From assembly GCA_964609665.1 (NCBI GenBank), contig CAZSTV010000001.1:34733-81914 (forward strand): DNA of 47,182 bases, in the 5' to 3' direction. The notes beneath the pieces were generated by a model. The model saw nothing but the letters and a program-made list of their open reading frames with translations. It made no database searches and had not been told where the DNA came from. A program made the translations under genes and the position numbers. This DNA comes from an uncultured Acidimicrobiaceae bacterium (GTDB lineage: Bacteria; Actinomycetota; Acidimicrobiia; Acidimicrobiales; SZUA-35). Each line of letters opens with the position of its first letter. Position 1 is the first letter of the stretch. This document shows, piece after piece, positions 3,301-44,790 of the stretch.

Positions 3301-3309
3301 CAGTAAATA

Positions 3310-3332: not shown

Positions 3333-3334
3333 TG

Positions 3335-5050: not shown

Positions 5051-5107
5051 TGTAGTTAGTTAGGCCTGCTTTACCAAACGGGAAAAATCCCGCTACCCTC
5101 GGCACTC

Positions 5108-9269: not shown

Positions 9270-10273
9270 CCGCCCCGGTGCTGGCGATGCCAGCCCCACT
9301 GTTGACGGATGCCGTCCAGGAGGGAGGTTGTCGGTCGCCATCTGAGGAGGTCAGCGGTGGGGGCGATGTCGGCCGCTGTCGCCGTTGGGTCTCCCGGTGC
9401 CGTCGGGCCGTCAACGACCATCGGGGCCGTGCCGGTCACCGCTGTCACGGTTGAAATCACCTCGTTGAGCGACACCGCGCAGCCACCGCCGACGTCGAGG
9501 GTTGCTCCGGCCAGGCCTGGGTGTGGAGACAATCCTGCGGCCACCGTTGCCGCCACCACGTCTGCGACGAAGGTGAACTCCCGCATCTGGGTGCCGGGGC
9601 CACGTCGGGTGAATGGTGCTTTTTCGTGACGAGGGGCGGTGGCGGCCAGGAGTCGTTCGATGGCCATATCCGGGCGCTGTCGCGGCCCGAAGACGGTGAA
9701 ATATCGCAGGTTGACCACATCGAGCCCCAGGTGGCCGTAGACCCTTGACAACTGCTCCCCTGCCGCCTTTGAAACGCCATAGGGGCTGACCGGGTCGACC
9801 GACCGGGAGCCGGTTGTGGCGCCATTCCCGTACACCGACGAGCTGGATGCGTTGACCAGCCGGCCAACGCCGCTGGCGGCCGCGGCCTCCAGCACCTGTT
9901 GCGTCATGGTGATGTTCAGTCGGCAGGTGTCCTGAAAGCCGCTGCCCCAGGATTGCTGCACACCGGGTCTGGCGGCCAGGTGGAAGACAACGTCCACGTC
10001 GGAGAAATGATGGGCCAGGTCAGTGCTCGCCATATCTGGGCTCGATATGTCAGCTTCGACGAGACGAAACCTCGGATGGGTCGTGGCCGACACCAGGTTG
10101 CGTCGCTTGTGGGCGGGGTCATACCAGGGGTCGAAGTTGTCGATCCCGGTCACCTGACAACCCTCGGCCAGGAGCTGATCGACCAGATGAGATCCGATAA
10201 ATCCCGCTGCGCCGGTGACGACAGTGGTTTTTGGTGTCCGAATCGGCTCTTCACCATGGTATTCAGAAATCAT
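9242..10273 (-). CDS. NAD-dependent nucleotide-sugar epimerase/dehydratase (extended SDR)
   Basis: VVTGAAGFIGSHLVDQLL Rossmann motif, a YGVSK catalytic Y-x3-K, and RYFTVFGPRQRPDMA, typical of UDP-sugar 4-epimerase/decarboxylase enzymes. Confidence 0.85.
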   Translation of the reverse strand: MISEYHGEEPIRTPKTTVVTGAAGFIGSHLVDQLLAEGCQVTGIDNFDPWYDPAHKRRNLVSATTHPRFRLVEADISSPDMASTDLAHHFSDVDVVFHLAARPGVQQSWGSGFQDTCRLNITMTQQVLEAAAASGVGRLVNASSSSVYGNGATTGSRSVDPVSPYGVSKAAGEQLSRVYGHLGLDVVNLRYFTVFGPRQRPDMAIERLLAATAPRHEKAPFTRRGPGTQMREFTFVADVVAATVAAGLSPHPGLAGATLDVGGGCAVSLNEVISTVTAVTGTAPMVVDGPTAPGDPTATAADIAPTADLLRWRPTTSLLDGIRQQWGWHRQHRGGQDEVAAAA

Positions 10274-10331
10274 TAGGCATACTTTACATTGTGATCTGCG
10301 GAATGTCCCAAAAAATGTTGTGTGTAACCGG

Positions 10332-12493: not shown

Positions 12494-13032
12494 CAGTTCG
12501 CTCCCTGTTCTTGTTCTTCGGTTGCCTTGGCTTTGGCTGCCTTGGCTTCGGCGGCCGGGTCTGCGGTGAGCAGCCGCTTCGCCTCGGCCGGGTCTTTGGT
12601 GAAGCCTGGAGCGTCACGGCAAAGTTCCACCATGATTTGGTTGGGGTCGAGATAGTACAGCGAGTGACACCAGCCGTGATCCAGTTCCATCAGCGGCTCG
12701 ATCCCCGCGGCGGTCATGCGTTCCCGGACCTCTTCCTGCTTCTCGGCGGTGGCTCTGAACGCGCAGTGGTTCACCCAGACCGGTAGTCCGACCCCTTTCG
12801 AAAGGTCGGTGGTCCAGTCGGGTAGCTCGCCGATTTGTTCGAACTGGAAGAACGCTATCGACTCCGACTCGCCGTCGCCGTTGGGGCCAATGTCGTAAAA
12901 GACGTGACGGACCCAGCTGTCTCCCTGGGCCTGCAGCTCGGTGTGTACGAGCGGAAAGCCCATCAGATCCTCATAGAAGTGGGTGGTGGCCTCCACATCT
13001 CTGGTTGCGTACGCGACGTGGTGGATTGGCAT
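12493..13032 (-). CDS. VOC (glyoxalase/bleomycin-resistance/dioxygenase) family protein
   Basis: MPIHHVAYATRDVEATTHFYEDLMGFPLV is the classical VOC N-terminal beta-alpha-beta module, and HCAFRA forms a second module. Lys/Ala-rich C-terminal tail. Confidence 0.8.
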   Translation of the reverse strand: MPIHHVAYATRDVEATTHFYEDLMGFPLVHTELQAQGDSWVRHVFYDIGPNGDGESESIAFFQFEQIGELPDWTTDLSKGVGLPVWVNHCAFRATAEKQEEVRERMTAAGIEPLMELDHGWCHSLYYLDPNQIMVELCRDAPGFTKDPAEAKRLLTADPAAEAKAAKAKATEEQEQGAN

Positions 13033-13112
13033 GGACCTGCTCCTCGAGGTTCTGGTAGCGAAGGGCTGTTGTTAGAGGGTATGTGAGCCGACGTGGTTGG
13101 GCGAGCCGAGCT

Positions 13113-14192
13113 TCAGCAGCCGCCGGGATTGGCGGGGAGGTGGTCAAAGACACCGACCGGTCGGGTCTTGGCGTATTCGGTGACGACCGGGCGGAGCTGG
13201 TCTGGGCTTGCGCCATGGAGAATCACGCCGTCGCAGCCAAGGTCGAACTGTGCCCGAACCGTCTCGACACACTGTTTTGGGTCTCCGGTGGCGGCCGGAG
13301 CGAGCCACTCATCCGGTATCAGCGTTGCGATGTGTTCCAGCTGCTCGGTGGTGGCAATCGCGTCGATCGATCCGGGGAACGTTGCGACGAGTGGGTCTGC
13401 CCGAAAGCGTTCGAGTGCGGCCGGGTCCCAGCCATTGGTCTCAACCATGAGGTCACCGTAGGCCTGGAGGTAGGTGCCCATTCGCCCGACGGTCTTCTTC
13501 AACCGGACCGGTTCCGGAAGGTGATCGCCTACGGTGGCAAGACAGGACCACACCCGAACCGACGCCGGGTCACGCCCCGCCTGTTCCGCCGCGGTCTTGA
13601 CGGTGTCGACCACCCTGGCCGTAGTCTCGTCGGTGAAGAACGTGTGGAGCACGACGGCGTCGAAGCATCGGCCGCCGAGCGCCAAGGAGTTCGGTCCGAA
13701 GGCGGTGAGGGTCATTGGGATGTGGTGCTCTCCTACCCCACGCATGGCAAGCGCCGGGTAGGCCCCGGCCGGACCGTCGTGGCCGATCACCGCCTCACCT
13801 CGCCACACCCGTCGCATCAGGCCGACGAAGTCCTCCATTTGTGCGGTGGTGATGGGTTTGAGTCCGTAAGCGGCGAACACGCGGTCGATGCCCCGCCCAA
13901 GCCCCAGCGAGAAGCGGCCGCCGGTAAGCGCGTGCATTGTCATGGCGTGGGCGGCGGTGACCATGGGGTGACGGGTGCTGTGATTGGTTGCGGCGGTCGC
14001 AATGCCGATGCGTTCGGAGGCAACGCCGACGGCTCCACAGATGGTGGCGGCTTCCTTGATGTTGAACCGCTCGCTGACGAACGCCGCGCCGATGCCTAGT
14101 TCCTCGGCCTGCCTAACCTCGTCGATGAGGTCTCGTGGGGATTCGGGGGCTCCGGCGAGGGTATAGAAACCCAGCTCATTCATCTGCGTCAT
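13113..14192 (-). CDS. Luciferase-like monooxygenase (LLM-class flavin/F420-dependent oxidoreductase)
   Basis: LGFYTLAGAPESPRDLIDEVRQAEELGIGAAFVSERF and RFSLGLGRG are typical LLM motifs. ATG 14192 is chosen because the family-like sequence starts there. Confidence 0.8.
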   Translation of the reverse strand: MTQMNELGFYTLAGAPESPRDLIDEVRQAEELGIGAAFVSERFNIKEAATICGAVGVASERIGIATAATNHSTRHPMVTAAHAMTMHALTGGRFSLGLGRGIDRVFAAYGLKPITTAQMEDFVGLMRRVWRGEAVIGHDGPAGAYPALAMRGVGEHHIPMTLTAFGPNSLALGGRCFDAVVLHTFFTDETTARVVDTVKTAAEQAGRDPASVRVWSCLATVGDHLPEPVRLKKTVGRMGTYLQAYGDLMVETNGWDPAALERFRADPLVATFPGSIDAIATTEQLEHIATLIPDEWLAPAATGDPKQCVETVRAQFDLGCDGVILHGASPDQLRPVVTEYAKTRPVGVFDHLPANPGGC

Positions 14193-14322
14193 CACCGCCA
14201 CGAAACCACGAAAGTGACGGTCACACCAGCTGCGTAGCAAAGCGGTGGCACGGGCCACAGCCGGACCGGTCCAACCGGTAGAGTTTTCGCCATGAGCGAG
14301 CGGCGCCTTCAACCGACGACGG

Positions 14323-17716: not shown

Positions 17717-18355
17717 CTAGAGGGCCGTGACCAGGAACTCGACGCGATTGTTGGCGTCGCGCTCTTCCCTGGTCTGTCCCTCGTCGGGGTTGGCGGGAAC
17801 GACCACCAGCTCCGAACGACCGAGCCCTGTCGCCCGGATTCGGCTCTCGTCGATGCCGTGGTTGCTCAGGTGGAGGAAGATCTGTCGAGCGGGACCAACG
17901 GTGAGATGCAGGTCGTTCTCGGCGGTGGTACCCGGGCCGAAACTGGCGAGATGGACTCGTATATCCAATTCCACGGTGGGGTTGGCCAGTAGGAACAGCC
18001 GAACTCGCTCTACCTCGGACAGCTCCGGTTCCCTAAGCGAAGTGAGGAACCGAAGCGGTTGGAGTTCCAGTCGCTCGGTCAGGTCATCACCGATGGCGAG
18101 ATCGTCGATGACGGGCGGCGCTACCGGTGAGCTGGTTGAAGTGGAACTGCTGGCGGATGTCGAAGTGCTGACGGGCGTCGAAGTGCTGATGGACGTTGAG
18201 GTGCTGACTGACGCCGAAGTATCTGTAGAGGCGGTCGGGTCTGGCGAGGTCCCAGCCGTTTGGCTGTCGTCACTCGAAGCGCAGCCGACGAGAATGCTCG
18301 CCGTTGCCGCAACTGCCACCACTAACTGCTGCCACCGGCCCGCCACGACGGCCAT
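17717..18355 (-). CDS. OmpA/MotB-domain lipoprotein with Ser/Thr-rich linker
   Basis: Lipobox ILVGC-AS. Hexapeptide-like linker TSASVSTSTSISTSTPVSTSTSASSSTSTSS. C-terminal ATGLGRSELVV..ERDANNRVEFLV matches the OmpA_C peptidoglycan-binding motif. ATG 18355 avoids overlap with the helicase gene. Confidence 0.7.
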   Translation of the reverse strand: MAVVAGRWQQLVVAVAATASILVGCASSDDSQTAGTSPDPTASTDTSASVSTSTSISTSTPVSTSTSASSSTSTSSPVAPPVIDDLAIGDDLTERLELQPLRFLTSLREPELSEVERVRLFLLANPTVELDIRVHLASFGPGTTAENDLHLTVGPARQIFLHLSNHGIDESRIRATGLGRSELVVVPANPDEGQTREERDANNRVEFLVTAL

Positions 18356-18360
18356 GTTAG

Positions 18361-18393
18361 CTCTGCCGGTCCTCGCTCTGCCGGTCTTAGCTC
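18361..18393. repeat. 15-bp tandem repeat, about 2.2 copies
   Basis: CTCTGCCGGTCCTCG (18361-18375), CTCTGCCGGTCTTAG (18376-18390), CTC. It lies in the 62-bp gap between the helicase stop and the OmpA-like gene start. Confidence 0.85.
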
Positions 18394-18417
18394 GGGGTCT
18401 ACGAGGGCAGTGCAGCG

Positions 18418-20328
18418 CTACCAGTCGACACAGGAGCACTGCACGGTCCGCTCCAGGGCCTGCCACTTGAATTCGCTTGGCGAGGATGTTTCGCCGCAGC
18501 CGAAGCAGCGCACTGCCCAACCGCCACCGGGCACCTCGACCAGGCCAACGGGTTGCTGGCCGGTGGAGAGGCGATGTTTCTGTGGTTTCGCTTTGCCAAT
18601 CTCCGGTAGCTCGGCGACCTCGAGTTCAAGGTACTCCGGCTCCGGAATTGCCTCGTCGGGATACAACTCCCAGACCCAACGGTGAAGCCAGGTGGCCTCA
18701 TCCCACGGGAGGTAGCTCACGTGGGCGTAGAGGGTTTGCATGTCTATCCGTTTGAGCAGACGGTCGACCATCGGCCGGCCGGACTCGCTGGACAGCGCTG
18801 TCCACGCCTGATGGTCACCGCGGAGCAGAGCATCGATGTACTCCTCGTCCACTTTGGGCGCCTCTGTGGTGTCGGTTCCGGCGGCCATCGGACCGATCCG
18901 GTTTGGCACGATGATGGTCTCTGGGCCCGAGTAGTCCAAGAAGTCGACCAGGCGATCACGGTCGTCGTTGTCGAAGACCCGGGCGTTTTCAGATATCCGC
19001 TCGATCTCCTCCAGGAAGCCGTCCCGCTCCTGGTTGGCCATGGGGTCTTCCAGGGTGTCCCTGGCAAAGATGATGACGAACCGAGCGCCGCTGCCCTGTT
19101 CCTTGCGGCGCAGAATGCGGCCCATCCGCTGAATCATCTGCCGCCTCGTACGGCTGGCGCTGACAACGATGCCAAGGTTGGCATTCGGTACGTCGATGCC
19201 CTCATCGAGCACCCGAGGAGCAGCGACAGCGTCCAGGTCCCGGGTTCGGAGGTTGTCCAGAATCTTCTCTCGGGCCTTGCGTCCGGTCTCGCCGGTGATG
19301 ATCTCAATGTTGACGTGCGGATCAAGCCGGTTGACCGCGTGGTTGGCGGCCCGCACCGTTTCGGTGAAGATCAATGCGCCGTCGGCATCCTTGATCGCTT
19401 TTGCGAAGCCGCCGAGCGCCTCGTATTTGGAAGTACTGGCAGCGACAATTTCTCGCCGGTGGCTAAACGAGCGGAGGTAGTCGTTGGCCGCCGTGCCGTT
19501 TGGCCCGGCATCGTTCTCTGCGAGGTGGTTGACCGCAGCCAAGAAGTCGCCGAACGGTTCGAGCGGCATCTGGGGAATCGACCGGAGGATCGATCGTGAC
19601 GCGACCAGCTTCGCCTCGGCGGCGATGTAGTCCTCTCGCTCGTTCTCCGAGAGCGCCACCGACACAAAGGCGACCCTCGGCTGAGCGCACACCCCGTCGC
19701 GAATGGCGTCGTGGAAGTCATACCGGTAGCACACCCCACCGAAGTACGGCACCAGAATCTTCTCGACCGCATCATCGGAGCGTTCCAACGTTGCGGTGAG
19801 GCCCAGTCGTTCGCCGTAGTCCTTGATCAGCGAGCGGCGAAGCTTGCCGCCGCCGTAGCCGTGGCACTCATCAGCCACCAGCAGGCCGCCGGCTTCGGTT
19901 GGGGGAAGCGGCCGGTGCGACGCCGCCGAATGCCTGGTGGCGATCAGAACATCACAGCGTTCCGGGTAGTCCCGGTGGTTGTCGCCGAGACGGCCGATCG
20001 TGCAGTCGGGAATCAGCTCGGTGAGCCGCTCGTGCCACTGGTTGATCAACACCCGTGACGGCACGATGACGAGTACGAACAACCCTCGCCGGTGCGCATC
20101 GACGATGGCAGCGATGGCGAGGTTGGTCTTGCCCGAGCCTGTTACCGCCTCAATGACTCCACGGCGTCCGCACCTGAGCCACGTCGCGAGAGCGTCAACC
20201 TGCCATTCATACAGTGCACCGGCCTGATGGATGCCGGGGGTGCCGACGTGGGTTTCGGTCAACTGGGTTCCTGTGATGGCGAGGGGCGGGGCGTGCGCAA
20301 CGCAGCACACCGACGTGGTCTGCGACAT
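18418..20328 (-). CDS. Superfamily-2 helicase (type III restriction Res-subunit / XPB-like core) with about 200-aa C-terminal extension ending in a Cys4 cluster
   Basis: Motif I AVTGSGKT, motif II VADECH, motif III LTATLER, motif VI QRMGRILRR. The C-terminal region has no motif I recognise and ends in RCFGCGETSSPSEFKWQALERTVQCSCVDW. Confidence 0.8.
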   Translation of the reverse strand: MSQTTSVCCVAHAPPLAITGTQLTETHVGTPGIHQAGALYEWQVDALATWLRCGRRGVIEAVTGSGKTNLAIAAIVDAHRRGLFVLVIVPSRVLINQWHERLTELIPDCTIGRLGDNHRDYPERCDVLIATRHSAASHRPLPPTEAGGLLVADECHGYGGGKLRRSLIKDYGERLGLTATLERSDDAVEKILVPYFGGVCYRYDFHDAIRDGVCAQPRVAFVSVALSENEREDYIAAEAKLVASRSILRSIPQMPLEPFGDFLAAVNHLAENDAGPNGTAANDYLRSFSHRREIVAASTSKYEALGGFAKAIKDADGALIFTETVRAANHAVNRLDPHVNIEIITGETGRKAREKILDNLRTRDLDAVAAPRVLDEGIDVPNANLGIVVSASRTRRQMIQRMGRILRRKEQGSGARFVIIFARDTLEDPMANQERDGFLEEIERISENARVFDNDDRDRLVDFLDYSGPETIIVPNRIGPMAAGTDTTEAPKVDEEYIDALLRGDHQAWTALSSESGRPMVDRLLKRIDMQTLYAHVSYLPWDEATWLHRWVWELYPDEAIPEPEYLELEVAELPEIGKAKPQKHRLSTGQQPVGLVEVPGGGWAVRCFGCGETSSPSEFKWQALERTVQCSCVDW

Positions 20329-20430: not shown

Positions 20431-21639
20431 TTAGGAATTGGTGGCCACCGCAACATAAATCCACGGGTATGTCACCGCAGCCACAGGCACTCGCGTCTCG
20501 TCTGCGACGTTGAATTCGATCACCTGAAATTCCTGTCCATCGTAGCCCACGGTCACCAGCGTCTCGTCCGATGTCCAGGCAAACTCGCGGTCCACGACGT
20601 CGCCAAGAGTTGCCCGGAGCTCTCCGGATGCTCGGTCGACAATGGCAATCTGGCCGAGTGATGTCAGAGCGTGTCGCTGGGCGAAGGCGATGAGCGAACC
20701 GTCGGGTGAGAGCGCACCACGTTGCGCGTCCGGCTGGCTCTGCATTGCCACCTCGGTGGTCTCACCGGTCAGCAACCGGTAGCTGATGACGGTGTCCTCA
20801 CCAGCCAGGATGACCAACTCGTCGGTGCCGCCGAGGAGCTCGAACCCCGGCGGAGCGGGAATCGATGTGAGGCCGCCGATCGGCGACCAATGGGCGAGCC
20901 GCCCGAGACCGGACTCGATCGGTGGCGCGACGACAAGGCCGTCTCCGGCGGCGGTCAACGCCCGACCGCTCCCGGCGAAGTCAAACGTCTGGCCGGCAGT
21001 GTCCTCGGTTAGCCGGAACCGGCGGACCATCCGCTCCCCCGCTTCGACCACCCAGAACTCGTCGGCACCGAGACCATCGAGAACGCTGAGACCACGGCCC
21101 ATGACCATCGACTCGCCGGTGCCGATGTCGATGGCGACAATCTCACCCCTGCTCGGGTAGATGACCGTGGAGTCGGCGACCAGGAACGGGCGTGTCGTCG
21201 CCCCTGGCCAGGCCGGCCACTGATTGGCGCCGAGGACGACCGGGTTGTTTGCCGAGGTGGAGCGACCCTCCAGATCTACCAGTCGTACCGAGTGCTCACC
21301 GCTTGTCAGCTGGCTCAGTTCGACCAGCGAGAACGGCGCCGCCAACGCCTCCGGGTCGGTCAGGAGCCGGACGGTCGCAGCGTTGGTGCCCTGTCCCCTG
21401 TCGGCCCCTCCCAGTTCTGCTTCGCCCGGCCCCGGCTGCGTGACCAACGAGGTCTGGGTGGTCCGAGGGGTTGGTGGGTCCGGATCGATGGTGGTTGCCG
21501 GAGGCGCCGCATCCTGGTCGGACGCGATGCCTGGCATGGCAACAATGACCGCTAGCGCAACGACGATGACGGCAGCGATCGCGGCTAGCCATTTCGGGTT
21601 GGTAGTGCTCGGCGGGGCATGGTGTACCGGAGTGGCCAT
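20431..21639 (-). CDS. Membrane-anchored hypothetical protein with probable beta-propeller (TolB/PD40-like) ectodomain
   Basis: TM anchor WLAAIAAVIVVALAVIVAM, a Pro/Thr linker, and repeated strand-rich segments including LSPDGSLIAFAQ (PD40-like). An alternative GTG start at 21747 would add an Arg/Asp/His-rich tail. Confidence 0.55.
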   Translation of the reverse strand: MATPVHHAPPSTTNPKWLAAIAAVIVVALAVIVAMPGIASDQDAAPPATTIDPDPPTPRTTQTSLVTQPGPGEAELGGADRGQGTNAATVRLLTDPEALAAPFSLVELSQLTSGEHSVRLVDLEGRSTSANNPVVLGANQWPAWPGATTRPFLVADSTVIYPSRGEIVAIDIGTGESMVMGRGLSVLDGLGADEFWVVEAGERMVRRFRLTEDTAGQTFDFAGSGRALTAAGDGLVVAPPIESGLGRLAHWSPIGGLTSIPAPPGFELLGGTDELVILAGEDTVISYRLLTGETTEVAMQSQPDAQRGALSPDGSLIAFAQRHALTSLGQIAIVDRASGELRATLGDVVDREFAWTSDETLVTVGYDGQEFQVIEFNVADETRVPVAAVTYPWIYVAVATNS

Positions 21640-21657
21640 CTCCACGACGTACTCACC

Positions 21658-21717
21658 GTGGTGGTCGTTTCGGCGGTGATCGATTCGGTGGTGGTCGTCT
21701 CGGCGGCGGTCGTCTGG
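21658..21717. repeat. Imperfect 30-bp tandem duplication (24/30 identical)
   Basis: GTGGTGGTCGTTTCGGCGGTGATCGATTCG (21658-21687) versus GTGGTGGTCGTCTCGGCGGCGGTCGTCTGG (21688-21717). Confidence 0.8.
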
Positions 21718-21739
21718 GCGGCGACGGCGTCGGCGGTGG

Positions 21740-22147
21740 TCAGCCACCCCTGGATCGCCTGAGGTCCCGCCAGGTCTGGACAACCTCGTCCGGGTCGAGG
21801 GCGGCATGTTGTTGGAAGGTGGTCCTGCTGTTGTACGCAACGATCTGTTCGTTGAGATCCCGAACGGCATCACGCAGCAGTTCTTCGGAGCCAAGTCGCC
21901 ACAGCGTCGGCTTGGCCCGCTTGATCTGTCGGTCCAGTTCCTCGTACCGCATTTTGTTGCGTTCCTCGGTCACCACCCGGGATGCCCACCAGCCCGGTGG
22001 TCGTTCCCGGCCAAGGTCGGCAATGGGCTTGCCCGCTCCCGGCAGGTTGTCGAAGAGGCCCGCTCGGCGAGCCTCCTGTATGCGACGGTCTGCGATCGAC
22101 TCGAACAGCCCCACGACGTCAGAATACTGGACGTCTGGAATTCCCAC
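21740..22147 (-). CDS. DUF1992 (DnaJC28-like) family protein
   Basis: IADRRIQEARRAGLFDNLPGAGKPI is the hallmark DUF1992 motif. GTG 22147 is chosen so the gene does not overlap the divergent CoxL-like start; the ORF-track start at 22285 is less likely. Confidence 0.65.
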   Translation of the reverse strand: MGIPDVQYSDVVGLFESIADRRIQEARRAGLFDNLPGAGKPIADLGRERPPGWWASRVVTEERNKMRYEELDRQIKRAKPTLWRLGSEELLRDAVRDLNEQIVAYNSRTTFQQHAALDPDEVVQTWRDLRRSRGG

Positions 22148-24456: not shown

Positions 24457-25104
24457 TCAGATGCCGGCTCTGACCTCTCGGTAGCGTTCCTGCAGCTCAC
24501 GGTTCTTGTTGATCGGGTCGTGCGCTCCGTCGGGCACCGCTCCTCCCTTGATCCCGCACGAGTTGAGGAACAAAAACATGTCGGCCAGATGAAGCAGCCG
24601 CTTGTCATCTTCAGACTGTGGGTCTCGGCTGTCGCGGAGCTCAAACGCTCGCTCCATCACTGGCACCTCGTCCGGCAGGCCTGAGTCAATCAGCGACTGA
24701 GCCAGCGCCTGCTTCGCCGCTTCCTGGCGTCGCTCTTCGTCCGGGGCCGCATCGTCGCCGTCTCCGGTGTTGATCAGCTTGATCATGTCGTGCTCGGAGA
24801 TGCTGTATAGCCGGTCCTGCTGCTCGAAATAGTGCAGCTGGAACGCATAGGCGTGACCGTACGCGCAGTATTCACAGCCGTTGACAACCGAGAGCGCCGT
24901 TGCGATGAAGTGGGTCCGCAACGGACCCCATTCGGACAAGATTTTCTCGTATGCCGGCATGTTCTTGGCGAACCAGGACACGGACCGGACCGGACCGTGC
25001 TGGTCGACGATGTCTTCCATCAGGTTGGCCCGGAGGTCCCAGAGTTTGGAGCTGACGCCGGTCAGCATTCTGGTCGCAACTCTGTCGGGTATCGACGATC
25101 CCAT
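24457..25104 (-). CDS. AhpD/carboxymuconolactone-decarboxylase-like protein with CxxC
   Basis: ALSVVNGCEYCAYGHAYAF is the AhpD-core CxxC..H motif. The start is ATG 25104 or ATG 25143. Confidence 0.6.
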   Translation of the reverse strand: MGSSIPDRVATRMLTGVSSKLWDLRANLMEDIVDQHGPVRSVSWFAKNMPAYEKILSEWGPLRTHFIATALSVVNGCEYCAYGHAYAFQLHYFEQQDRLYSISEHDMIKLINTGDGDDAAPDEERRQEAAKQALAQSLIDSGLPDEVPVMERAFELRDSRDPQSEDDKRLLHLADMFLFLNSCGIKGGAVPDGAHDPINKNRELQERYREVRAGI

Positions 25105-25246
25105 GTTGTATTTCCGCCTCGGTTGGTGGCCCGCGATAACCATTCTAGTTGTACAAAGCTGAACGGCGAATCGCCGTGCTCGGGGGGAGGCCTTGTGGGC
25201 TAGTGTGATCGCCTGCGAATGGCGACCCGCCCGAAGGGAAGTTCTC

Positions 25247-26296
25247 ATGCTGCGTTGGGCAATCCTTGGCACCGGGTTTATCTCCGGCACCGTTGTCGAA
25301 GCCATCTCCGCCAGTGACGGATCGCGAGTCGAGGTTGTCTCCGGACGCAACCCCGACCGGCGTGCCGCCTTTCAACGCCAACACGGGATCGCCCGGGGTG
25401 TTGCCAGCTACGACGAGGCGGTGGCAGACCCGAACGTCGACGCTGTCTACATCGGCCTGCCGAACCACATGCACCACGAGCCGGCGATCGCCGCAGCGGC
25501 GGCCGGCAAGGCGGTCCTCTCCGAAAAGTCACTGACGACGACCATGGCCTCCGCCGATGCGCTGATCGACGGCGTGCGAGCAAACGGCACCTTCTTTGTT
25601 GAGGGCCTGATGTACCTGGCCCATCCGATGTATCAGCGAGTCGTCGAACTGTTGCTCGACGGTCGGCTCGGGCAGGTTCGCTCCATCAGCGGTCGGTACG
25701 CGGCGAACATTTGCCAGGTCGTGAACCCGCAGGGCATGGGCACGATCTACAACCTCGGCTGTTACCCGGTTTCGCTCCTGCACCTGGTCATGACCACAGT
25801 CTATGGGCGGGAGCAGTTCGACGACCGGTCAATGACGGCCGTGGGCAATCTGGCCGAGCCGGTGGAGCAGACCGATGGTCACGGCGCCGGGACCATCGGA
25901 GACGCGGCCATGGCGGTCAAGTTCGGCAACGGTGTGCTCGCAACAATCCAGTCCACAGACAACTTCGGAAACGACAGCGACTTCGCCATTGTTGGTGACC
26001 GAGGAACGCTGCGCTTCGACACCAACCCATGGCTCCCCGAAGCTGGTGAGAACGTGCTCACCTGGACGCCATTCGTCGACGATGGATCCAGCCCCGCAAC
26101 GGAGCGCATCGTGATCAACGACGAGCATGATGCCTTCTACCATCAGATCAAGCTGGTTGAGCGATGCGTGGCTGACGGGTTGCTCGAAGCGCCACGACCA
26201 TCGCCGAACCTCGATGACTCTCGACAGATCATGGCAATGCTGACCGAGTGGGAGGAGCGCTGCTGGGCCGACGACAGTCAGTTCGGAGAGATTTGA
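25247..26296 (+). CDS. Gfo/Idh/MocA-family NAD(P)-dependent oxidoreductase
   Basis: MLRWAILGTGFISG Rossmann start, VYIGLPNHMHHEPAIAAAAAGKAVLSEKSL (EKP-like motif), and a C-terminal alpha/beta domain. Confidence 0.85.
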   Translation: MLRWAILGTGFISGTVVEAISASDGSRVEVVSGRNPDRRAAFQRQHGIARGVASYDEAVADPNVDAVYIGLPNHMHHEPAIAAAAAGKAVLSEKSLTTTMASADALIDGVRANGTFFVEGLMYLAHPMYQRVVELLLDGRLGQVRSISGRYAANICQVVNPQGMGTIYNLGCYPVSLLHLVMTTVYGREQFDDRSMTAVGNLAEPVEQTDGHGAGTIGDAAMAVKFGNGVLATIQSTDNFGNDSDFAIVGDRGTLRFDTNPWLPEAGENVLTWTPFVDDGSSPATERIVINDEHDAFYHQIKLVERCVADGLLEAPRPSPNLDDSRQIMAMLTEWEERCWADDSQFGEI

Positions 26297-26380: not shown

Positions 26381-27406
26381 ATGCTCCAAGGTCGCGGTCT
26401 GTATCTCTTGGGTGTTGCGGCGCTGCTCGTGACATCAGCCTGGGCGTTTAGCGAGCCCGCTCAGCAGCTCACGGTTGGCCCCACCAACGTTCGGGTCGAT
26501 CCGACCGGGGTGTACAACCCGGTGCTGGCAGGTGAACCGCTACCGGACGGCTTCCGCCAGATCCTCCCCCGCGATGCCATCGCCCCCGTGTACGAGCCCG
26601 AGTTCGTCGATGGTCGAGACATCGTCTGGCCTGACGACGCTCAGGTGATCGGCGTGAGTTCCGGCGGTGAAGCCAAGGCCTACCCGGTGAGCTTTCTCAA
26701 CGGTCGGGAGATGGTGGTCGACGAGATTGACGGCATACCGATACTTGTCACCTGGTGACCGCTGTGCGCAACGGCGATGGTTCATCGCCGAGACGTAGCG
26801 GGAGAGACACTGGTGTTCGGCGTTCACGGCGCGCTGCTTGGCAACGCCATGACCTGGTGGGATCACGACACCGGCAGCATCTGGAGTCAGCCAACCGGCA
26901 CCGCGGTGGCCGGACCTCGCAAGGGGCAGACGTTGGAGCTGCTCCCCGTCAGCTTCAGTACCTGGGACGCGTGGCGTGACGCTCACCCTGACACCCTTGC
27001 GCTTGCCGCTCCGGCCGACCGGACCGGCTTCGACCTCGCCGACTTCTACATCGTCGTTGACTTCACCGACGATGTCGCCGCGTACCCTGTACCGGAGCTA
27101 CAGAGCGTCGGTGCGATAAACGACGTCGTGGCCGGGGTGGACATTGCGGTGGTAGTAGATCCGGCCGATCAGGAACGGTGGAAGGTCTTCTCCCGGCGTC
27201 TCGATGAGCAGGTCGTTGAGCTGACGGTCGAGAACGGAGTGCTGAAAGACAGGGGGACCGGAACCACGTGGGACCCCGTGACCGGAGTGGCCCTCGAAGG
27301 GGAACTCGCCGGGCAGATCCTTGACACCCTGCCCTCCCTCACCTCGTTCCCCGGCGACTACGACACGTTCTGGCCGGACGGCCGCGTCTGGAGCCCGGAC
27401 CAGTGA
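26381..27406 (+). CDS. DUF3179-family exported protein read through an in-frame TGA (26756-26758): candidate selenocysteine codon, or a nonsense-disrupted pseudogene
   Basis: ORFs 26381..26758 and 26777..27406 are in the same frame, separated only by TGA plus six sense codons. The joined sequence ..IDGIPILVTW-TGA-PLCATAMVHRRDVAGETLVFGVHGALLGNAMTWWDHDTGSIWSQ.. reproduces the DUF3179 core, with the TGA at the first Cys of CPLC. The signal peptide (LLVTSAWA-F) is present only on the upstream part. Confidence 0.6.
26772..26790 (+). promoter_or_regulatory. SECIS-like stem-loop 13 nt downstream of the in-frame TGA
   Basis: CGGCGATG-GTT-CATCGCCG forms a perfect 8-bp stem, or a 7-bp stem with loop GGUUC. 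The loop G residues sit 23-24 nt from the U of UGA. A lower stem is possible (C26769-G26792, G26768-C26794, C26767-G26795). Confidence 0.35.
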
Positions 27407-28014
27407 ACGACGATGTGCAACAGTCACAGGTGACCGAGGCGGCTTACGATGCCGCCGGCGGCTCTGGGTTGAGCGGCGGCGCTTGGATGCTCCGGTTGAC
27501 GACGGCCCGCTGGGAGAGCATTCCGCCAGCGCCTCCACTGAAAGCGGCGGCAACGGTCATCGGCTCGTGGCTGGTGTTGGCGTGGGGCCGTTTCGGGTTT
27601 CAGGGCATTGCCAGCCCGCGGGCGTTGACCCGCTTTGTCCTGGTCGGGGTCTACGGCTGGCTCGCCGTAGCGGCAGTAGCCTGGCTTGGTTCCGTGTTGC
27701 TTGCCAGGGTCCGAGATGAACGGCGACCCGCTGACCCGGTCCGGGTGCTACAGGTCACCGGATTGAGCCACCAGCCGCTGTTGGTGTTCGGCGTCCTGTT
27801 GCAGGTTGGGCAGCTGGCACCGATCCCCGGCCTAATGACCGTTGTTGCGGTGCTGACGATCGCTCTGTGGGCACCGGCGATTCTGGCCGCGGCGCTTGCA
27901 GCGACACTTGGGCCGCCCCGCCGTTCTGCTCTGGCGACCACCGCGGTTGCAGCCGGGCTGTGGTTCATCGTCAGCGGCCGTTACCTCTTGGCCCAGCTCG
28001 GCCACCTGTTCTGA
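27403..28014 (+). CDS. Polytopic membrane protein of unknown function (Yip1-like topology), Cys-free
   Basis: GTGA overlap with the DUF3179 gene stop. About 5 TM helices follow a 40-aa soluble N-terminus. No motif that I recognise. Confidence 0.55.
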   Translation: MNDDVQQSQVTEAAYDAAGGSGLSGGAWMLRLTTARWESIPPAPPLKAAATVIGSWLVLAWGRFGFQGIASPRALTRFVLVGVYGWLAVAAVAWLGSVLLARVRDERRPADPVRVLQVTGLSHQPLLVFGVLLQVGQLAPIPGLMTVVAVLTIALWAPAILAAALAATLGPPRRSALATTAVAAGLWFIVSGRYLLAQLGHLF

Positions 28015-30214: not shown

Positions 30215-31063
30215 ATGGACTACGAACAGATCGAGGTTGAGGATCGAGGGCCTATTCGAGTGGTCACACTCTCCCGGCCCGACCGACTGAACGCGTGGAC
30301 TCGGAGGATGAACGCCGAGTTGCTCGACACGATCGACGAGGGAAACGCTTCTGATCAGATCGGCGCATTTGTCTTCACCGGCGCAGGCCGAGGGTTCTGC
30401 GCAGGAGCGGACATGACCGACGAGTTCGGGGGTGGTGCCCCAGGTTCGGACTCATCCGGCTCGAACTCCTCAGGTTCAGAGTCATCTGGCTCGGGAGCAT
30501 CGAATTCCAGTTCGGACGACAAGCCTCGGAGGGATACCGAATCTCGCAACTGGGTGGACGTTGTCAGGCAGTCCAAGCCGATGGTGGCTGCGGTCAACGG
30601 GCCGTCGGTCGGCGTCGGACTCACCATGATTTTGCCGATGGACTACCTCGTTGCCGCCGAGTCAGCCAAGCTCTCGGCCCGCTTCGTGCGCATGGGCATA
30701 GTGCCCGAGCTGGCATCCAGCCATTTCCTTGTGCAGCGCTGCGGCTGGGGCGCGGCCAGCGACCTTGCGCTCTCGGGTCGGATGATGTCCGGCGATGAGG
30801 CGCTTTCCATCGGATTGGTCGACCGGGTCGTCGCCGATGACGCGCTGCTCGAGACCGCCATCGCCCATGCTGAGAGCTACGCCCAGAACCCTCCCGAGGC
30901 GCTGCTGATGATCAAGGAACTGCTGACGGTAAACGGTGCCGACGCTGACTTGGCCGCCGTTCAGCAACGAGAACTCGCCCACCTTCGCACCGCGTTGCGC
31001 TCGGCAGAGCACAAAGAAGCGGTCTCGGCGTTTATGGAGAAGCGAGAACCGAACTTCCGCTAG
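30215..31063 (+). CDS. Enoyl-CoA hydratase/isomerase (crotonase) family protein with a Ser/Gly-rich loop insertion
   Basis: IRVVTLSRPDRLNAW, FTGAGRGFCAGADM and AAVNGPSVGVGLTM are crotonase oxyanion-hole motifs. ATG 30215 is preceded by AGGACGACAGGAG. The low-complexity insert GSDSSGSNSSGSESSGSGASNSSSDD maps to about 30428-30520. Confidence 0.85.
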   Translation: MDYEQIEVEDRGPIRVVTLSRPDRLNAWTRRMNAELLDTIDEGNASDQIGAFVFTGAGRGFCAGADMTDEFGGGAPGSDSSGSNSSGSESSGSGASNSSSDDKPRRDTESRNWVDVVRQSKPMVAAVNGPSVGVGLTMILPMDYLVAAESAKLSARFVRMGIVPELASSHFLVQRCGWGAASDLALSGRMMSGDEALSIGLVDRVVADDALLETAIAHAESYAQNPPEALLMIKELLTVNGADADLAAVQQRELAHLRTALRSAEHKEAVSAFMEKREPNFR

Positions 31064-31803
31064 CTGGCGGTACAGACCCGCCAGTCGTCTCCCTCTTTGA
31101 CCAGGTTGTAGGTGACCGACCGAGCGATGCCGTCCACCTCGATGGTGCCGCTCACCGTTGCCGTGGACTGTTGGCCACTCGATGAGGAGACCGAGGCCTC
31201 GGTGAAGCTGAAGTCGGTGATCTCCCCACCGATCCCCGCTTCGGCTTCTGCCGCCCACTGGTCGGGGTCGGCGGCACCCTTGGTGCTGGTGCACAACTGG
31301 TTGTAGGCCGCGGCGTAGTCCCCGTTGTCGAGGTCAGCGACGAAGGCGTTGGTGGCATCAATCGGCGCGCCGACGGAGCTGATGACCAACGCAGTACACC
31401 CGCCGATTCCCAACAGAAGCAGCAGCGGGATGGCAAGGAGAATCCAGAGCCACTTCTTACTCTTCTTCTGCGGCACGGCTTGTCCCGGTGGGTACGCCTG
31501 GTGCCCGCCAGGTTGGGCGTACTGCTGTTGCTGCTGGCCGTAGGGATCTTGAGGCACCGGTTGTTGCTGACCCGGCTGGCCGTATTGGAGGCCGGGTTGC
31601 GGCGCACCCTGACCGGGAGGGGGAAACCCCTGCGCGGGCGGAACGTTGGGTGGCGCACCAGCCTGCGACGGAGGAAACAACGGCGTCTGCTCCTGCCCCG
31701 GAGTGGGAAACGTGCCCGGCTGTTGCGGCGGCTGGCTCGGCGGAAGCTGCCCGCTCGGCGGCCCTGATGGCGGCTCGAAATCGAACTGATCGTCTGATGA
31801 CAT
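31060..31803 (-). CDS. Membrane-anchored protein: Pro/Gln-rich N-terminus, one TM segment, small NTF2-like (DUF4878-like) ectodomain
   Basis: PPSQPPQQPGTFP..PYGQQQQQYAQPGG, TM segment WLWILLAIPLLLLLGIGG, and a C-terminal domain ending in TYNLVKEGDDWRVC. ATG 31803 is preferred to 31848. Confidence 0.6.
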   Translation of the reverse strand: MSSDDQFDFEPPSGPPSGQLPPSQPPQQPGTFPTPGQEQTPLFPPSQAGAPPNVPPAQGFPPPGQGAPQPGLQYGQPGQQQPVPQDPYGQQQQQYAQPGGHQAYPPGQAVPQKKSKKWLWILLAIPLLLLLGIGGCTALVISSVGAPIDATNAFVADLDNGDYAAAYNQLCTSTKGAADPDQWAAEAEAGIGGEITDFSFTEASVSSSSGQQSTATVSGTIEVDGIARSVTYNLVKEGDDWRVCTAS

Positions 31804-31872
31804 TGGTATCCGCTCCCAGTGGATGGGCCCCAGCTTCTGCATGGGCACCAGCCGAGACTAACGTCTCACGTC

Positions 31873-33066: not shown

Positions 33067-33798
33067 ATGGCGACCACCTCCGATCCGGGCCCACAGCACT
33101 TCGAGGAGTTTGCCGATCCCATCGACGGCACACGGTGGCGCGTCGACATGTCATTCATGTCTTCCAACTGGCACTGCATCTGGGGTGACGGTTGCGAGGG
33201 CATTCTCGAACACCGAGCGGCAGCGCTCAACCAGGGGTGCTGCTCGGTCGGCGCCCACCTGATCGACGACGATGAGGCCAGGGCCATCGGCGCACTGGGC
33301 CTCATGCTCGATCCACAGCGCTTCCAGCAGCACGAAGCAGCGGCGGCCGGTGGTGTGCTCGCCGATGGGCCGCAACCGGCGACACGTGTGGTCGACGACG
33401 CCTGCATCTTCTTCAACAAACCGGGATTTCCCGGCGGCGTCGGGTGCGCGCTGCACCTAGCGGCCGAGGACGAGGGCGAATCCCCGATGGACTGGAAGCC
33501 GTCCATCTGCTGGCAGGCACCGCTCAAGGTTGATACCAACCCCGACGGCACCAAAACACTCCGACCGTGGCAGAAGACCGACTGGGGGCCCGGCGAACAG
33601 CTGGCCTGGTGTTGCACGGAGCCGAACACCTCACCCGCTGATGGTCCAAGCGCCTACAGCGGCACGGCGCCGGTGGCGGAGTCACTCTCGGCGGAGCTGA
33701 CCGGACTGGTCGGTCCAGAGGTGGCGGTCGAGATCACCCGTCGGGCCGATGCCGCTGCATCAACCCGACAGTGGCGTACCAGCGGGTCTGGGCCATGA
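33067..33798 (+). CDS. Conserved-looking Cys-rich hypothetical protein (possible metal or Fe-S binding)
   Basis: Cys clusters NWHCIWGDGCEG, QGCCSVGAH, DDACIFFN, GVGCALH, PSICWQ and AWCCTEP. Coding-like composition. The family is not identified with confidence. Confidence 0.5.
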   Translation: MATTSDPGPQHFEEFADPIDGTRWRVDMSFMSSNWHCIWGDGCEGILEHRAAALNQGCCSVGAHLIDDDEARAIGALGLMLDPQRFQQHEAAAAGGVLADGPQPATRVVDDACIFFNKPGFPGGVGCALHLAAEDEGESPMDWKPSICWQAPLKVDTNPDGTKTLRPWQKTDWGPGEQLAWCCTEPNTSPADGPSAYSGTAPVAESLSAELTGLVGPEVAVEITRRADAAASTRQWRTSGSGP

Positions 33799-37247: not shown

Positions 37248-38363
37248 ATGCCGCTACAGGTCGTCGGGATGATCGGGGTTGCTCCGCCACCGGACGATGC
37301 AACGGTGCACATCATCGATGGTGGCGTGCGCCCGGAGTATCTGGTCGAGTTCAGCCAGGCCCACGACCGAGCCGGGTTCGACCTTGTCCTCGTCGGCTAC
37401 ACCTCAACCTCGGCCGACGGGTGGTCCGTGGCCACCCACGCCGCGGCAAACACCGAATCGGTCGGCTACCTCATCGCACACCGTCCCGGATTTGTTGCGC
37501 CCACCCTCGCTGCACGCAAAGCGGCCACGTTTGACCGGATGAGTAGCGGTCGCTTTGCACTGCACATCATTGCCGGGGCCAGCGACCGTGACCAACAACG
37601 CGACGGTGACTACCTCGCCAAGGCGGACCGCTACGCCCGGGCTGGCGAGTACCTGGAGGTGATGCGCAAGACCTGGACCGCCACCGAACCATTTGATCAC
37701 GAGGGTCCCTTCTACCGGATGACCGACGTGCGTTCCGATGTGCACCCACTGCAGCAGCCCTCTCCCCCGGTGTTCTTCGGCGGTTCATCGCCCGAGGCGT
37801 TGGCGATGGGAGCAGAACACTGCGACGTCTACGCCGTCTTTGGTGAGCCGCTGGCGGCCACCGCCGAACGGTTTGCCGACTTCCGGCACCGGGCCGCGGC
37901 GTTCGGGCGGACCCCAACCTTCTCCATGAGCTTCCGCCCCATCCTCGGCCGAACCGAGGGCGAGGCATGGGACCGTGCTCACAAGATTCTGGCGGCCATC
38001 GAGGGCGACGGCTCCAAGCGGTCAAGCCGGCTCAGCGGCGGCGGCCCAAAGCCATACGACCACAGCGGGGAACGGATGCTGGCCCACGCTGCTGCGGCAG
38101 ACGTGCACGACGAACGGCTGTGGTTGAAAGTGGCCGAAGCAACCGGGGCGCCCGGAAACACCTCGTGCCTTGTCGGCACCGCCGAGCAGGTGGCAGACGC
38201 CCTCCTCAAGTACTACGAGCTTGGTGACCTCGGCTACGTGCTGCTTCGCGGCTTCGACCCGCTAGCGGATGCCAAGGAGTTTGGCGAGGAGTTGATTCCT
38301 CGGGTCAAGGCCGGAGCGCTGGCAATTGACGCCGGCTCAATTGCGTCCGCGGGTTCCCGGTAG
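37248..38363 (+). CDS. LLM-class flavin-dependent monooxygenase (SsuD/SfnG-like)
   Basis: FDLVLVGYTS, GYLIAHRPGFVAPTLAARKAATFDRMSSGRFALHIIAG and DYLAKADRYARAGEYLEVMRKTW are typical of the alkanesulfonate/dimethylsulfone monooxygenase branch of LLM enzymes. Confidence 0.75.
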   Translation: MPLQVVGMIGVAPPPDDATVHIIDGGVRPEYLVEFSQAHDRAGFDLVLVGYTSTSADGWSVATHAAANTESVGYLIAHRPGFVAPTLAARKAATFDRMSSGRFALHIIAGASDRDQQRDGDYLAKADRYARAGEYLEVMRKTWTATEPFDHEGPFYRMTDVRSDVHPLQQPSPPVFFGGSSPEALAMGAEHCDVYAVFGEPLAATAERFADFRHRAAAFGRTPTFSMSFRPILGRTEGEAWDRAHKILAAIEGDGSKRSSRLSGGGPKPYDHSGERMLAHAAAADVHDERLWLKVAEATGAPGNTSCLVGTAEQVADALLKYYELGDLGYVLLRGFDPLADAKEFGEELIPRVKAGALAIDAGSIASAGSR

Positions 38364-38375
38364 CAGACTCTGGCC

Positions 38376-39314
38376 GTGGCAAACGCAGACAAACTCGGGG
38401 TGCGATGGGGCTTAGCGGGCGGCGTGGCCCTCTCCACAATCGACGAGGTGAGACGGGCTGCGACCTGGGCATCCGACGTCGGGTTCGACGGCTTCTGGAT
38501 TTCCCAGGCCAACGCGGTCGACCCCATCGTGGCACTGGCCGCTGTCGCCGACGATGTCAGCGGACTCTCCGAGGTCGGCACGTCGGTTGTCCCGCTCTAT
38601 GGCAGGCATCCGCTCGGCCTGGCCCAGATGGTTCGCACCGCCCAGTCGGCCCTCGGCGGCCGGTTGACCCTGGGCATCGGGCCGTCCCATCGGGGGCCCG
38701 TCGAGGATTCAATGGGTCTGGCCTGGGATCGGCCATTCGGCTACACCACCGAGTTTCTTGATGGCCTCGAGCCGCTGCTCGCAGGTCAGGCAGCGGCGGC
38801 GGTTGGCGAACAGCTCACCACCAGAGCGGAGCTGAACATAGCGGCTCCCGACACCTCTATTCTCCTGGCTGCGCTCGGCCCTCGGATGTTGCGCCTCGCC
38901 GGACAGCGGACAGCGGGAACCACCGTCGGCCAATGTGGCCCCAAGACGATCAGCGCCCACATTGCGCCATTGATCAACGAAGCAGCAGCCGAAGCGGGAC
39001 GAGAGGCACCGCGCATCATGGCGCTGATCCGGCTGTGCGTCACCGACGATCACGCCGGCGCGTTCGCGCTGGCCCAAGAAGTCGGCGCCCGCTATGCGCA
39101 GTGGCCGTCGTACGCCGCGGTGTTGGAGAAGGAGGAGCTCGACCAACCGGGAGAGCTTCACCTCATCGGCTCGGCAGCCCAGGTGCTGGACGGTCTTGGC
39201 CGCTACGCCGAGGCCGGCGTCACCGACTTTCGCCTCGAGGTGGCGGCCCACAATGAAGCCGCGGCCGAATCGAGCAGGGCGGCCCTGGCCGACTACTTGG
39301 CCGCGCCTTCCTAG
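38376..39314 (+). CDS. LLM-class (probably F420-dependent) oxidoreductase
   Basis: VRWGLAGG..ASDVGFDGFWISQA and GGRLTLGIGPSH are LLM motifs. GTG start. Confidence 0.75.
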   Translation: MANADKLGVRWGLAGGVALSTIDEVRRAATWASDVGFDGFWISQANAVDPIVALAAVADDVSGLSEVGTSVVPLYGRHPLGLAQMVRTAQSALGGRLTLGIGPSHRGPVEDSMGLAWDRPFGYTTEFLDGLEPLLAGQAAAAVGEQLTTRAELNIAAPDTSILLAALGPRMLRLAGQRTAGTTVGQCGPKTISAHIAPLINEAAAEAGREAPRIMALIRLCVTDDHAGAFALAQEVGARYAQWPSYAAVLEKEELDQPGELHLIGSAAQVLDGLGRYAEAGVTDFRLEVAAHNEAAAESSRAALADYLAAPS

Positions 39315-40298: not shown

Positions 40299-41141
40299 GT
40301 GGACGCTGTCAGCTCCAACGTGATCGAGCGTTTCGCCGAGGACGGCTATGTCATCACGGACAACATGCTGTCCGCAGACGACGTTGACGCGTTCGCCGCC
40401 CCCATCGATGCCGGGGTTGCCGCTCGCACGGCGGGCGACGACCGATCGGTAGCCGAAAAGGACACCTACGAGCAGTCCTTCATCCAATGCATGCGCCTGT
40501 GGGAAACCGACCCGGACGTAGCGCCACTGACATTCCACCCCAAACTCGCCGAAACGGCGGCGCGGCTACTCGGCGTTGCTTCCGTGCGGCTGTGGCAAGA
40601 TCAAGCGCTGTACAAAGAGCCGGGAGGCCGTATTACCGACCCCCACCAGGACGCAACGTTTTGGCCCGTCGGTGAGGCGCCGATGATCTCGGCCTGGATA
40701 CCGCTCGATGGTTCGACCATCAACGGTGGCGCCATGGGCTACGTTGCCGGGTCTCACCGGGCCGGACCGCTGCGAACGGTCAACATCATGCACACCAGCG
40801 AGGTCTACAACATCCTGGATGACCCGGCATTACATGGCCGCCAACCGACATACGTCGAGGCGCCAAAGGGCTCGGTCGTCTGGCATCACGGCTTCACCGT
40901 CCACACCGCTGGCCCCAACCGCACCGATGCCACGAGGCGGGCGTTCACCATCGTGTACCTGGCCGATGGCTACCGGCGGACGAAACCGTGGCCGAACTTT
41001 CCACTCGACCGGGCAGGCGTCGAGGTCGGCGAACTGATGGAAGGCGATGGGCTACCAATGGTGTGGCCACCGTCGAGTGACCGACTGCCCGAGCCGCCAG
41101 CGGTGATCGGCGAGCCGACGGGACCGCAGAGCGGATCGTGA
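40299..41141 (+). CDS. Phytanoyl-CoA dioxygenase (PhyH) family Fe(II)/2-oxoglutarate oxygenase
   Basis: RFAEDGYVITDNMLS, the HxD facial triad in TDPHQDATFWP, the distal His in WHHGFTVHTAGPN, and RRAF. The GTG start is at 40299 or 40320. Confidence 0.75.
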   Translation: MDAVSSNVIERFAEDGYVITDNMLSADDVDAFAAPIDAGVAARTAGDDRSVAEKDTYEQSFIQCMRLWETDPDVAPLTFHPKLAETAARLLGVASVRLWQDQALYKEPGGRITDPHQDATFWPVGEAPMISAWIPLDGSTINGGAMGYVAGSHRAGPLRTVNIMHTSEVYNILDDPALHGRQPTYVEAPKGSVVWHHGFTVHTAGPNRTDATRRAFTIVYLADGYRRTKPWPNFPLDRAGVEVGELMEGDGLPMVWPPSSDRLPEPPAVIGEPTGPQSGS

Positions 41142-42586: not shown

Positions 42587-42671
42587 CGGCGTTGGTGTCG
42601 ATCGGACAATCGAGGCGGTTCGTGCTGGCCGAAGTGGCCTCTCGGGTCGGCGAACCGTACAGTCTGGGTCC

Positions 42672-44756: not shown

Positions 44757-44790
44757 GGCGGTTTCTGAGGCCGCCACCGTTGTGATGTAT

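Follow-up and report, generated by a model that had tools for sequence, protein, structure and literature searches.

A DUF3179 gene with an in-frame TGA in an uncultured Acidimicrobiaceae bacterium: very probable selenocysteine decoding in a family already catalogued among the selenoproteins

In a 47,182-nt stretch of DNA from an uncultured Acidimicrobiaceae bacterium (contig CAZSTV010000001.1, positions 34,733 to 81,914 of the forward strand; hereafter called the window), two open reading frames (ORFs), 26381..26758 and 26777..27406, are in the same frame. What separates them is the TGA at 26756-26758 and six codons for P L C A T A (CCG CTG TGC GCA ACG GCG), after which comes an ATG. A second reading of the sequence agrees with the original prediction, made from the letters of the window, that this TGA is the only interruption in the 342 codons of the frame 26381-27406. 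Together the two ORFs make up a complete coding sequence on the plus strand (26381..27406), with a putative ATG start at 26381 and 341 codons plus stop, in which the TGA occupies codon 126. The encoded protein belongs to the DUF3179 family, and it is proposed here that its TGA is read as selenocysteine (Sec) with the help of a selenocysteine insertion sequence (SECIS) located a few nucleotides downstream.

With a cysteine in the place of the TGA, the protein joined from both ORFs matches the Pfam entry PF11376 (DUF3179) over two stretches with an E value of 2.8e-53 and 181.7 bits against a cut-off of 27, and orthologues with the same architecture are present in 80 loci from related genomes; no matching model was found in NCBIfam. 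The protein begins with the segment MLQGRGLYLLGVAALLVTSAWA (26381..26446, plus strand), placed before an F, which looks signal-peptide-like upon inspection of the translation by eye and could also be a membrane anchor; the homologues likewise start with a hydrophobic stretch. Full-length homologues read ...PILVTWCPLCGTA(M/L)VHRR..., and the first Cys of their CPLC motif stands in the column of the TGA. Where Cys-form homologues have VTWCPLCGTA the window has VTW*PLCATA, i.e., the type of Sec/Cys pair by which selenoproteins are recognized. The claim that the TGA coincides with the first CPLC cysteine of a DUF3179 protein is thus borne out both by the Pfam match and by the homologue alignment. 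The resulting U-P-L-C (UxxC) motif at 26756..26767 (plus strand) is a putative redox or metal-binding active site, whose W, C/U, P and C show no or almost no variation in a protein alignment (A1) as well as in the set of related loci.

Protein searches retrieved two kinds of relatives. The first comprises about 40 full-length Cys-form proteins of 300-390 amino acids that are 48-64 % identical to the query. The second consists of some 80 proteins of about 207 amino acids, which start with MVHRR and span only the C-terminal 60 % of the query, as would result when a gene caller splits a TGA-containing gene. At the DNA level one genome per GTDB species was scanned, and the best 80 of 220 relatives were kept. 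This locus set is composed almost entirely of metagenome-assembled genomes (MAGs) of Acidimicrobiia, Acidimicrobiales or Ilumatobacteraceae that stem from many independent studies. In the Cys column, 79 of the 82 gene copies have TGA, two have TGC and one has TGT; with the window included TGA is found in 80/83, a proportion that describes the clade of the query and not all of DUF3179, since the 80 loci are those most similar to it. The TGA-bearing proteins share pairwise identities of 50-94 % (median 61 %), and their frames are intact, with conserved residues on both sides of the TGA.

These numbers bear directly on the most mundane account of the gene, a recent pseudogene or a read error, in which a Cys-form gene would have suffered a TGC-to-TGA change or a miscall at 26758. 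A single base does separate TGA from TGC, and gene callers do give two ORFs. However, 79/82 orthologous copies, representing about 79 other species, have the same TGA while both of their halves are intact and conserved as protein, and the assemblies come from many independent studies rather than from one erroneous source. Since the TGA has been kept across species at 50-94 % identity, neither a recent point mutation nor a read error is the explanation; synonymous-site conservation of the downstream hairpin, described below, speaks against this account as well, and we give it practically no credence.

Several genomes of the locus set harbour two DUF3179 paralogues (L060, at 10379 and 11531; L029, at 3506 and 10316), and some MAGs are represented by two loci each (L011/L040, L038/L052, L055/L073, L016/L071 and L009/L070). 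Sec-type DUF3179 genes resembling those of Acidimicrobiia also occur in MAGs labelled Gammaproteobacteria, Kiloniellales, Acidobacteria, Gemmatimonadales or Saprospiraceae (L004, L016, L026, L027, L059, L065, L071 and L077). These odd taxon labels are probably binning or labelling errors rather than signs of horizontal transfer.

Starting 13 nt after the TGA, the window contains the inverted repeat CGGCGATG-GTT-CATCGCCG at 26772-26790 (plus strand). The corresponding mRNA hairpin has an 8-bp stem, CGGCGAUG/CAUCGCCG, and a GUU loop that reads GUC in most orthologues. G 26779 and G 26780 lie 23 and 24 nt from the U of the UGA, and the coordinates of stem, spacing and loop all agree with those originally given. 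The minimal hairpin of 23 nt folds with -12.8 kcal/mol (z = -4.7), and none of 200 shuffled sequences was equally stable. In comparison, a wider region of 81 nt is ordinary for its G+C content of 64 % (z = -0.8); the local hairpin alone stands out.

The hairpin is also conserved in a manner that the protein does not account for. The 80 TGA-bearing genes were aligned by codon. Apart from the Sec column, 87 columns of this alignment carry an amino acid that is at least 90 % conserved and encoded by degenerate codons. Synonymous variation is zero in only three of them, Thr+5 (ACG, 80/80), Ala+6 (GCG, 79/79) and His+9 (CAT, 80/80), and all three lie within the stem. A fourth degenerate stem position, Arg+10, alternates between CGC (73 genes) and CGT (6), and C and T can each pair with the opposite G. 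All 83 remaining conserved degenerate codons, outside the stem, vary synonymously; the only other conserved His of the gene, for example, is CAC in 75 copies and CAT in 5. Synonymous sites also change freely in codons +1 to +3, which directly precede the stem, in the loop (GTC 69, GTT 9, GTG 2) and in codon +11, which follows the stem. The RNAalifold consensus of the 80 sequences is the same 8-bp helix, with 637 of 640 cells paired; the changes observed in the stem amount to six G-C to G-U replacements and three single mismatches (in L022, L028 and L043). This pattern argues that the hairpin is under purifying selection at the RNA level, and it does so by conservation, not by covariation.

Whether such a hairpin can serve as a SECIS depends on its geometry. 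According to the bacterial SECIS (bSECIS) model (PMC13188914, Fig. 2), the apical loop measures 3-9 nt and the upper stem 4-16 bp, a G lies at the first or second loop position and is usually followed by G or U, the distance from the UGA to the apical loop is 16-37 nt, and the minimum free energy is at most -7.5 kcal/mol. With its 3-nt GUU loop, 8-bp stem, spacing of 21 nt (26759-26779) and -12.8 kcal/mol, the window hairpin passes on all four counts. The original prediction had named TGA-containing orthologues with a conserved hairpin, and a SECIS model together with the folding energy, as the places to look for confirmation, and both have come out in its favour.

The few Cys-form copies of the locus set are informative in this respect. 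In L040 (TGT) and L041 (TGC), codon changes destroy the helix and the RNA does not fold into it, as expected if the hairpin serves the TGA. The third, the copy at 10379 of L060, is a TGC-bearing gene with an intact hairpin that stands in tandem with a Sec paralogue. Given this arrangement and its 91 % identity to the Sec-type gene of L080, it has the appearance of a recent replacement of Sec by Cys that has left a ‘fossil’ SECIS behind.

An alternative that accepts the conservation of the TGA is that it is a true stop codon and that the gene is split, giving an exported N-terminal fragment of 125 amino acids and a cytoplasmic C-terminal protein of 209 amino acids initiated at the ATG at 26777. 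This ATG is kept in 79 of the 80 TGA copies, and gene callers predict MVHRR proteins of about 207 residues in dozens of assemblies. However, the ATG is located inside the 8-bp stem, which would hinder initiation, and many Cys-form homologues that are single chains have this Met codon too. The break would moreover fall exactly at a Cys column of catalytic type, in the middle of a compact fold (residues 101-130 of the AlphaFold2 model of P0003, a Cys-form homologue, have a pLDDT, i.e., a predicted local confidence score, of 95-97), and the hairpin fits the SECIS model. We therefore judge a split gene to be very improbable.

Under Sec decoding, 26381-27406 would be a single gene encoding a DUF3179 protein that is exported or anchored in the membrane, with the UGA at codon 126 decoded as Sec. 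The individual steps are those established for bacterial Sec decoding, applied here to the window. As the ribosome nears the UGA, the mRNA hairpin at 26772-26790, 13 nt downstream, would act as the SECIS by virtue of its 8-bp stem, its G-U-Y loop and its spacing of 21 nt. SelB, in complex with GTP and Sec-tRNA(Sec), would bind the hairpin and, competing with release factor 2, bring Sec to the ribosomal A site. A shortage of selenium or SelB would make translation stop at the UGA and yield a fragment of 125 amino acids. The full product would carry a U-P-L-C site where Cys-form relatives have C-P-L-C.

A number of observations weigh against this interpretation. The window contains no tRNA detectable by ARAGORN, and no selA, selB or selD among the approximately 38 genes examined by a Pfam scan. 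Likewise, no tRNA-Sec was found in the 1.22 Mb of flanks of the 80 loci, where ARAGORN gave seven tRNAs and one transfer-messenger RNA, and E. coli SelA, SelB and SelD gave no tblastn match in the window plus the 1.22 Mb of related loci; that the source genome has the Sec machinery is accordingly assumed. The stem shows no compensatory double change among the 80 sequences analysed by RNAalifold, the covariation term being close to zero for a stem that is invariant. Rfam searches of the whole window at gathering scores, and of 26600-27000 at E <= 10, returned chance matches only and no SECIS or tRNA-Sec. Bacterial SECIS elements are poorly represented in Rfam. The stem is perfect, unlike that of the E. 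coli fdhF SECIS, which has a bulged U and a GGUC loop. The window loop reads GGUYC if its closing G-C pair opens and then resembles the fdhF loop, the GGU being 2 nt farther from the UGA than in fdhF. To these points must be added the sampling of the locus set mentioned above, the literature, in which we found no experimental selenium incorporation for any DUF3179 protein, and the fact that ideas about function draw on motif logic and on a minority gene neighbourhood.

That no Sec machinery was found in the sequence available is also an argument for a further alternative, read-through of the UGA without Sec. A near-cognate tRNA-Trp or tRNA-Cys, or programmed read-through stimulated by the hairpin, would place Trp or Cys there instead, and downstream structures can stimulate read-through in other systems. 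However, the column is Cys in all Cys-form relatives, the Cys/Sec pairing is typical of selenoproteins, and DUF3179 is already a recognized selenoprotein family. The Sec machinery has moreover been reported in the same class: according to a 2026 preprint, selA, selB, selC and selD are present in all 84 complete genomes of Actinomarina, an order of Acidimicrobiia. A general reassignment of the codon does not apply either, since TGA is the ordinary stop of many other genes in the window and the genetic code is therefore standard.

Further UxxC genes with an in-frame TGA occur in the same lineages and also speak against read-through of this kind. Three genes of the AhpC/TSA family with this feature (Pfam AhpC-TSA, E 1e-14 to 1e-23) were found on the minus strand in the flanks of DUF3179 loci: 9237-9956 in L016 (TGA at 9818; ...FNRGDW-U-PYCHG...), 2983-3708 in L037 (TGA at 3441; ...FHRHIH-U-LPCAA...) and 1657-2223 in L051 (TGA at 2085; ...FLRHAG-U-MICRA...). 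In L016, only about 540 nt separate the AhpC/TSA TGA from the DUF3179 TGA, which is on the other strand. The three are probably additional selenoprotein genes of these lineages, so that the lineage appears to use Sec elsewhere too, which constitutes independent evidence of Sec decoding there. An AhpC/TSA family (pfam13911, motif UxxS) is listed among the selenoprotein families in a 2022 review (PMC9312934). All this makes insertion of Trp or Cys at the DUF3179 UGA a most unlikely outcome.

Taking both sides together, we are highly confident that the TGA is a genuine Sec codon served by a bacterial SECIS, in a member of a selenoprotein family that has already been catalogued. The structure of the gene, the alignment of Cys with Sec, the kept TGA and the conserved sequence and geometry of the hairpin are observations; Sec insertion itself, export and the biochemical role are deduced from them. 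The original prediction of a SECIS hairpin serving a Sec UGA, in preference to a recent pseudogene, has therefore stood up, given a TGA in 80/83 copies, the frozen synonymous sites of the stem and the agreement with the bSECIS model.

In the window itself, a search for further TGAs that lie in frame and are flanked on either side by potentially coding sequence yielded nothing but artefacts, either antisense or between genes. The same-frame ORFs 3-392 and 393-1229, which are also joined by a TGA, are two ordinary genes that encode the last part of a transporter-like membrane protein and a protein of the TerC family, respectively.

The gene that follows DUF3179, at 27403..28014 on the plus strand, encodes a Yip1-like membrane protein of 203 amino acids with several hydrophobic segments. 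There is a 4-nt overlap between its GTG start and the stop of DUF3179, and because of it the two genes are probably co-transcribed and translationally coupled. A homologue is located directly downstream of DUF3179 in at least 37-38 of the 80 loci, and the two genes appear, from this recurrence, to form a conserved two-gene unit. The Yip1 likeness comes from the orthologue in L025, which matches Pfam Yip1 (PF04893) with 29.4 bits against a cut-off of 28.6; the window protein, which is 29-47 % identical to its orthologues, has no Pfam match at E <= 0.01. We infer that the DUF3179 protein and this membrane protein, the product of the overlapping gene, probably function together.

A second context is found in a minority of about nine loci, in which a CcdA-like gene with a DsbD_TM domain and a gene for a TlpA-like redoxin of thioredoxin fold (WCPSC) lie 2-3.3 kb downstream of DUF3179, for example at ~9870-10780 on the minus strand of L059 and at ~13020-13585 on the minus strand of L061. 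These neighbours hint at an extracytoplasmic thiol-reducing pathway that would supply a thiol or selenol protein with reducing power. No member of the DsbD_TM or TlpA-like gene clusters is present within about 6 kb of the DUF3179 gene of the window. The GFO/IDH/MocA oxidoreductase gene upstream and other neighbours in the window are not conserved beside DUF3179 elsewhere.

Farther away, the window contains an iron-related cluster (1319-7821) with genes for a repressor that depends on iron (1319-2023), a Fea1-like periplasmic protein inducible by low iron (2069-3253, minus strand) and a solute-binding protein and permease of an ATP-binding cassette transporter (5108-7821). Three luciferase-like monooxygenase genes, a sulfatase gene and two genes of the sulfotransferase family are distributed over 13113-14312 (minus strand), 37248-39314 (plus strand) and 41138-47108 (plus strand). 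Sizeable ORFs with no Pfam match are found at 7785-9269, 17717-18520, 20431-21894, 24457-25350, 31060-31848 and 33067-33798.

What the protein does can be approached through its fold. The AlphaFold2 model of P0003, calculated with 37 sequences, has a mean pLDDT of 92.1 and a predicted template modelling score (pTM) of 0.89. The predicted structure is almost all-beta, and a pattern of strands plus one short helix is present twice, which suggests an internal duplication. In alignment A1, C111, C114 and H120 (P0003 numbering) are invariant and H147 is nearly so; these four residues could form a 2Cys-2His site. Sequence and profile searches of the PDB with DUF3179 revealed no relative among solved structures, and a Foldseek search of the PDB with the model gave no match at E <= 0.001. 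The best Foldseek matches, at E values of 0.03-0.1, are Rieske ferredoxins (2qpz, 6llh_F and 3gce; probability 0.97-0.99, target TM-score 0.5-0.59). There is no Pfam Rieske match and the cluster-binding motifs CxH...CxxH are absent from the window sequence. Because of this absence the likeness to Rieske proteins stays a lead and not a classification.

We found no DUF3179 member with a biochemical characterization in the literature. From the motif, the U-P-L-C site probably serves as an extracytoplasmic centre of redox catalysis, of the selenenylsulfide or selenol-thiol type, and less probably as a metal ligand. In redox motifs of the CxxC, CxxS and CxxT types, a Thr tolerated at the second position suits catalytic redox chemistry better than a structural two-Cys metal site. 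Since the family motif also occurs as UxxT, a catalytic redox motif fits better here than a structural metal site.

A bolder proposal can be formulated, in which DUF3179 would be an exported selenoenzyme derived from a Rieske fold. Its U-x-x-C motif and two His would then make up either a site for a metal or a cluster or else a selenenylsulfide redox centre of an unusual kind, and together with the coupled Yip1-like protein it would act as an undescribed extracytoplasmic selenium-dependent module widespread in Acidimicrobiia. If this were true, the near-invariant 20-nt SECIS would point to sequence-specific recognition by a divergent SelB of the class. We consider the proposal unlikely.

The practical consequences are mostly a matter of annotation. 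Gene callers split this selenoprotein gene, and dozens of database entries of about 207 amino acids that start with MVHRR should each be a Sec-containing protein of about 340 amino acids. Many Acidimicrobiia (Ilumatobacteraceae and relatives) prefer the Sec form of DUF3179, with a SECIS that is almost invariant across species and a gene coupled to that of a Yip1-like membrane protein. A well-conserved and probably exported selenoprotein for which a confident model exists is a reasonable target for biochemistry, even though the advance is incremental and holds no surprise.

How does the window gene compare with known selenoproteins? Those of the AhpC/TSA type, with UxxC or UxxS, resemble it in that the UxxC stands at the position of a redox-active Cys and in that they occur on the same Acidimicrobiia contigs. 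However, AhpC/TSA proteins adopt the thioredoxin fold whereas the DUF3179 model is all-beta and two-lobed, so that the folds are unrelated, and the hairpins downstream of the AhpC/TSA TGAs differ from that of DUF3179. As to the Rieske-type ferredoxins, the fold likeness is weak; two Cys and two His are conserved in DUF3179, and the CxH...CxxH motifs are absent.

The closest comparison is with DUF3179 itself. The original prediction took the gene for a candidate new selenoprotein, on the premise that DUF3179 was not among the known selenoprotein families, and on this point it was mistaken, though not in the rest of its reasoning. Tables in PMC9312934 (2022) and PMC13188914 (2026) list DUF3179 (PF11376) as a known prokaryotic selenoprotein family with the motif UxxC/T and give example accessions, and Cys-form relatives from MAGs of Ilumatobacteraceae and other Acidimicrobiia are named ‘DUF3179 domain-containing (seleno)protein’ at NCBI. 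Both papers attribute the DUF3179 selenoprotein to the study of Olavius symbionts by Zhang and Gladyshev in 2007 (PMC1976440), which uses older family names such as OS_HP1 and OS_HP2. Neither Actinobacteria nor Acidimicrobiia are mentioned in the text of PMC9312934 or PMC13188914. A paper on Ilumatobacter (PMC11122139) deals with GlnRS/tRNA engineering and proved irrelevant. The family is hence not new, and the present analysis is a correct reading of a known thing and no discovery. The catalogued DUF3179 selenoproteins share with the window gene the Pfam domain, the position and form of the motif (U-P-L-C), the existence of Cys homologues and a stem-loop downstream of the UGA. Nothing essential differs between them; what characterizes the window copy is its membership of a clade of Acidimicrobiia where the Sec form is predominant and the SECIS nearly invariant.

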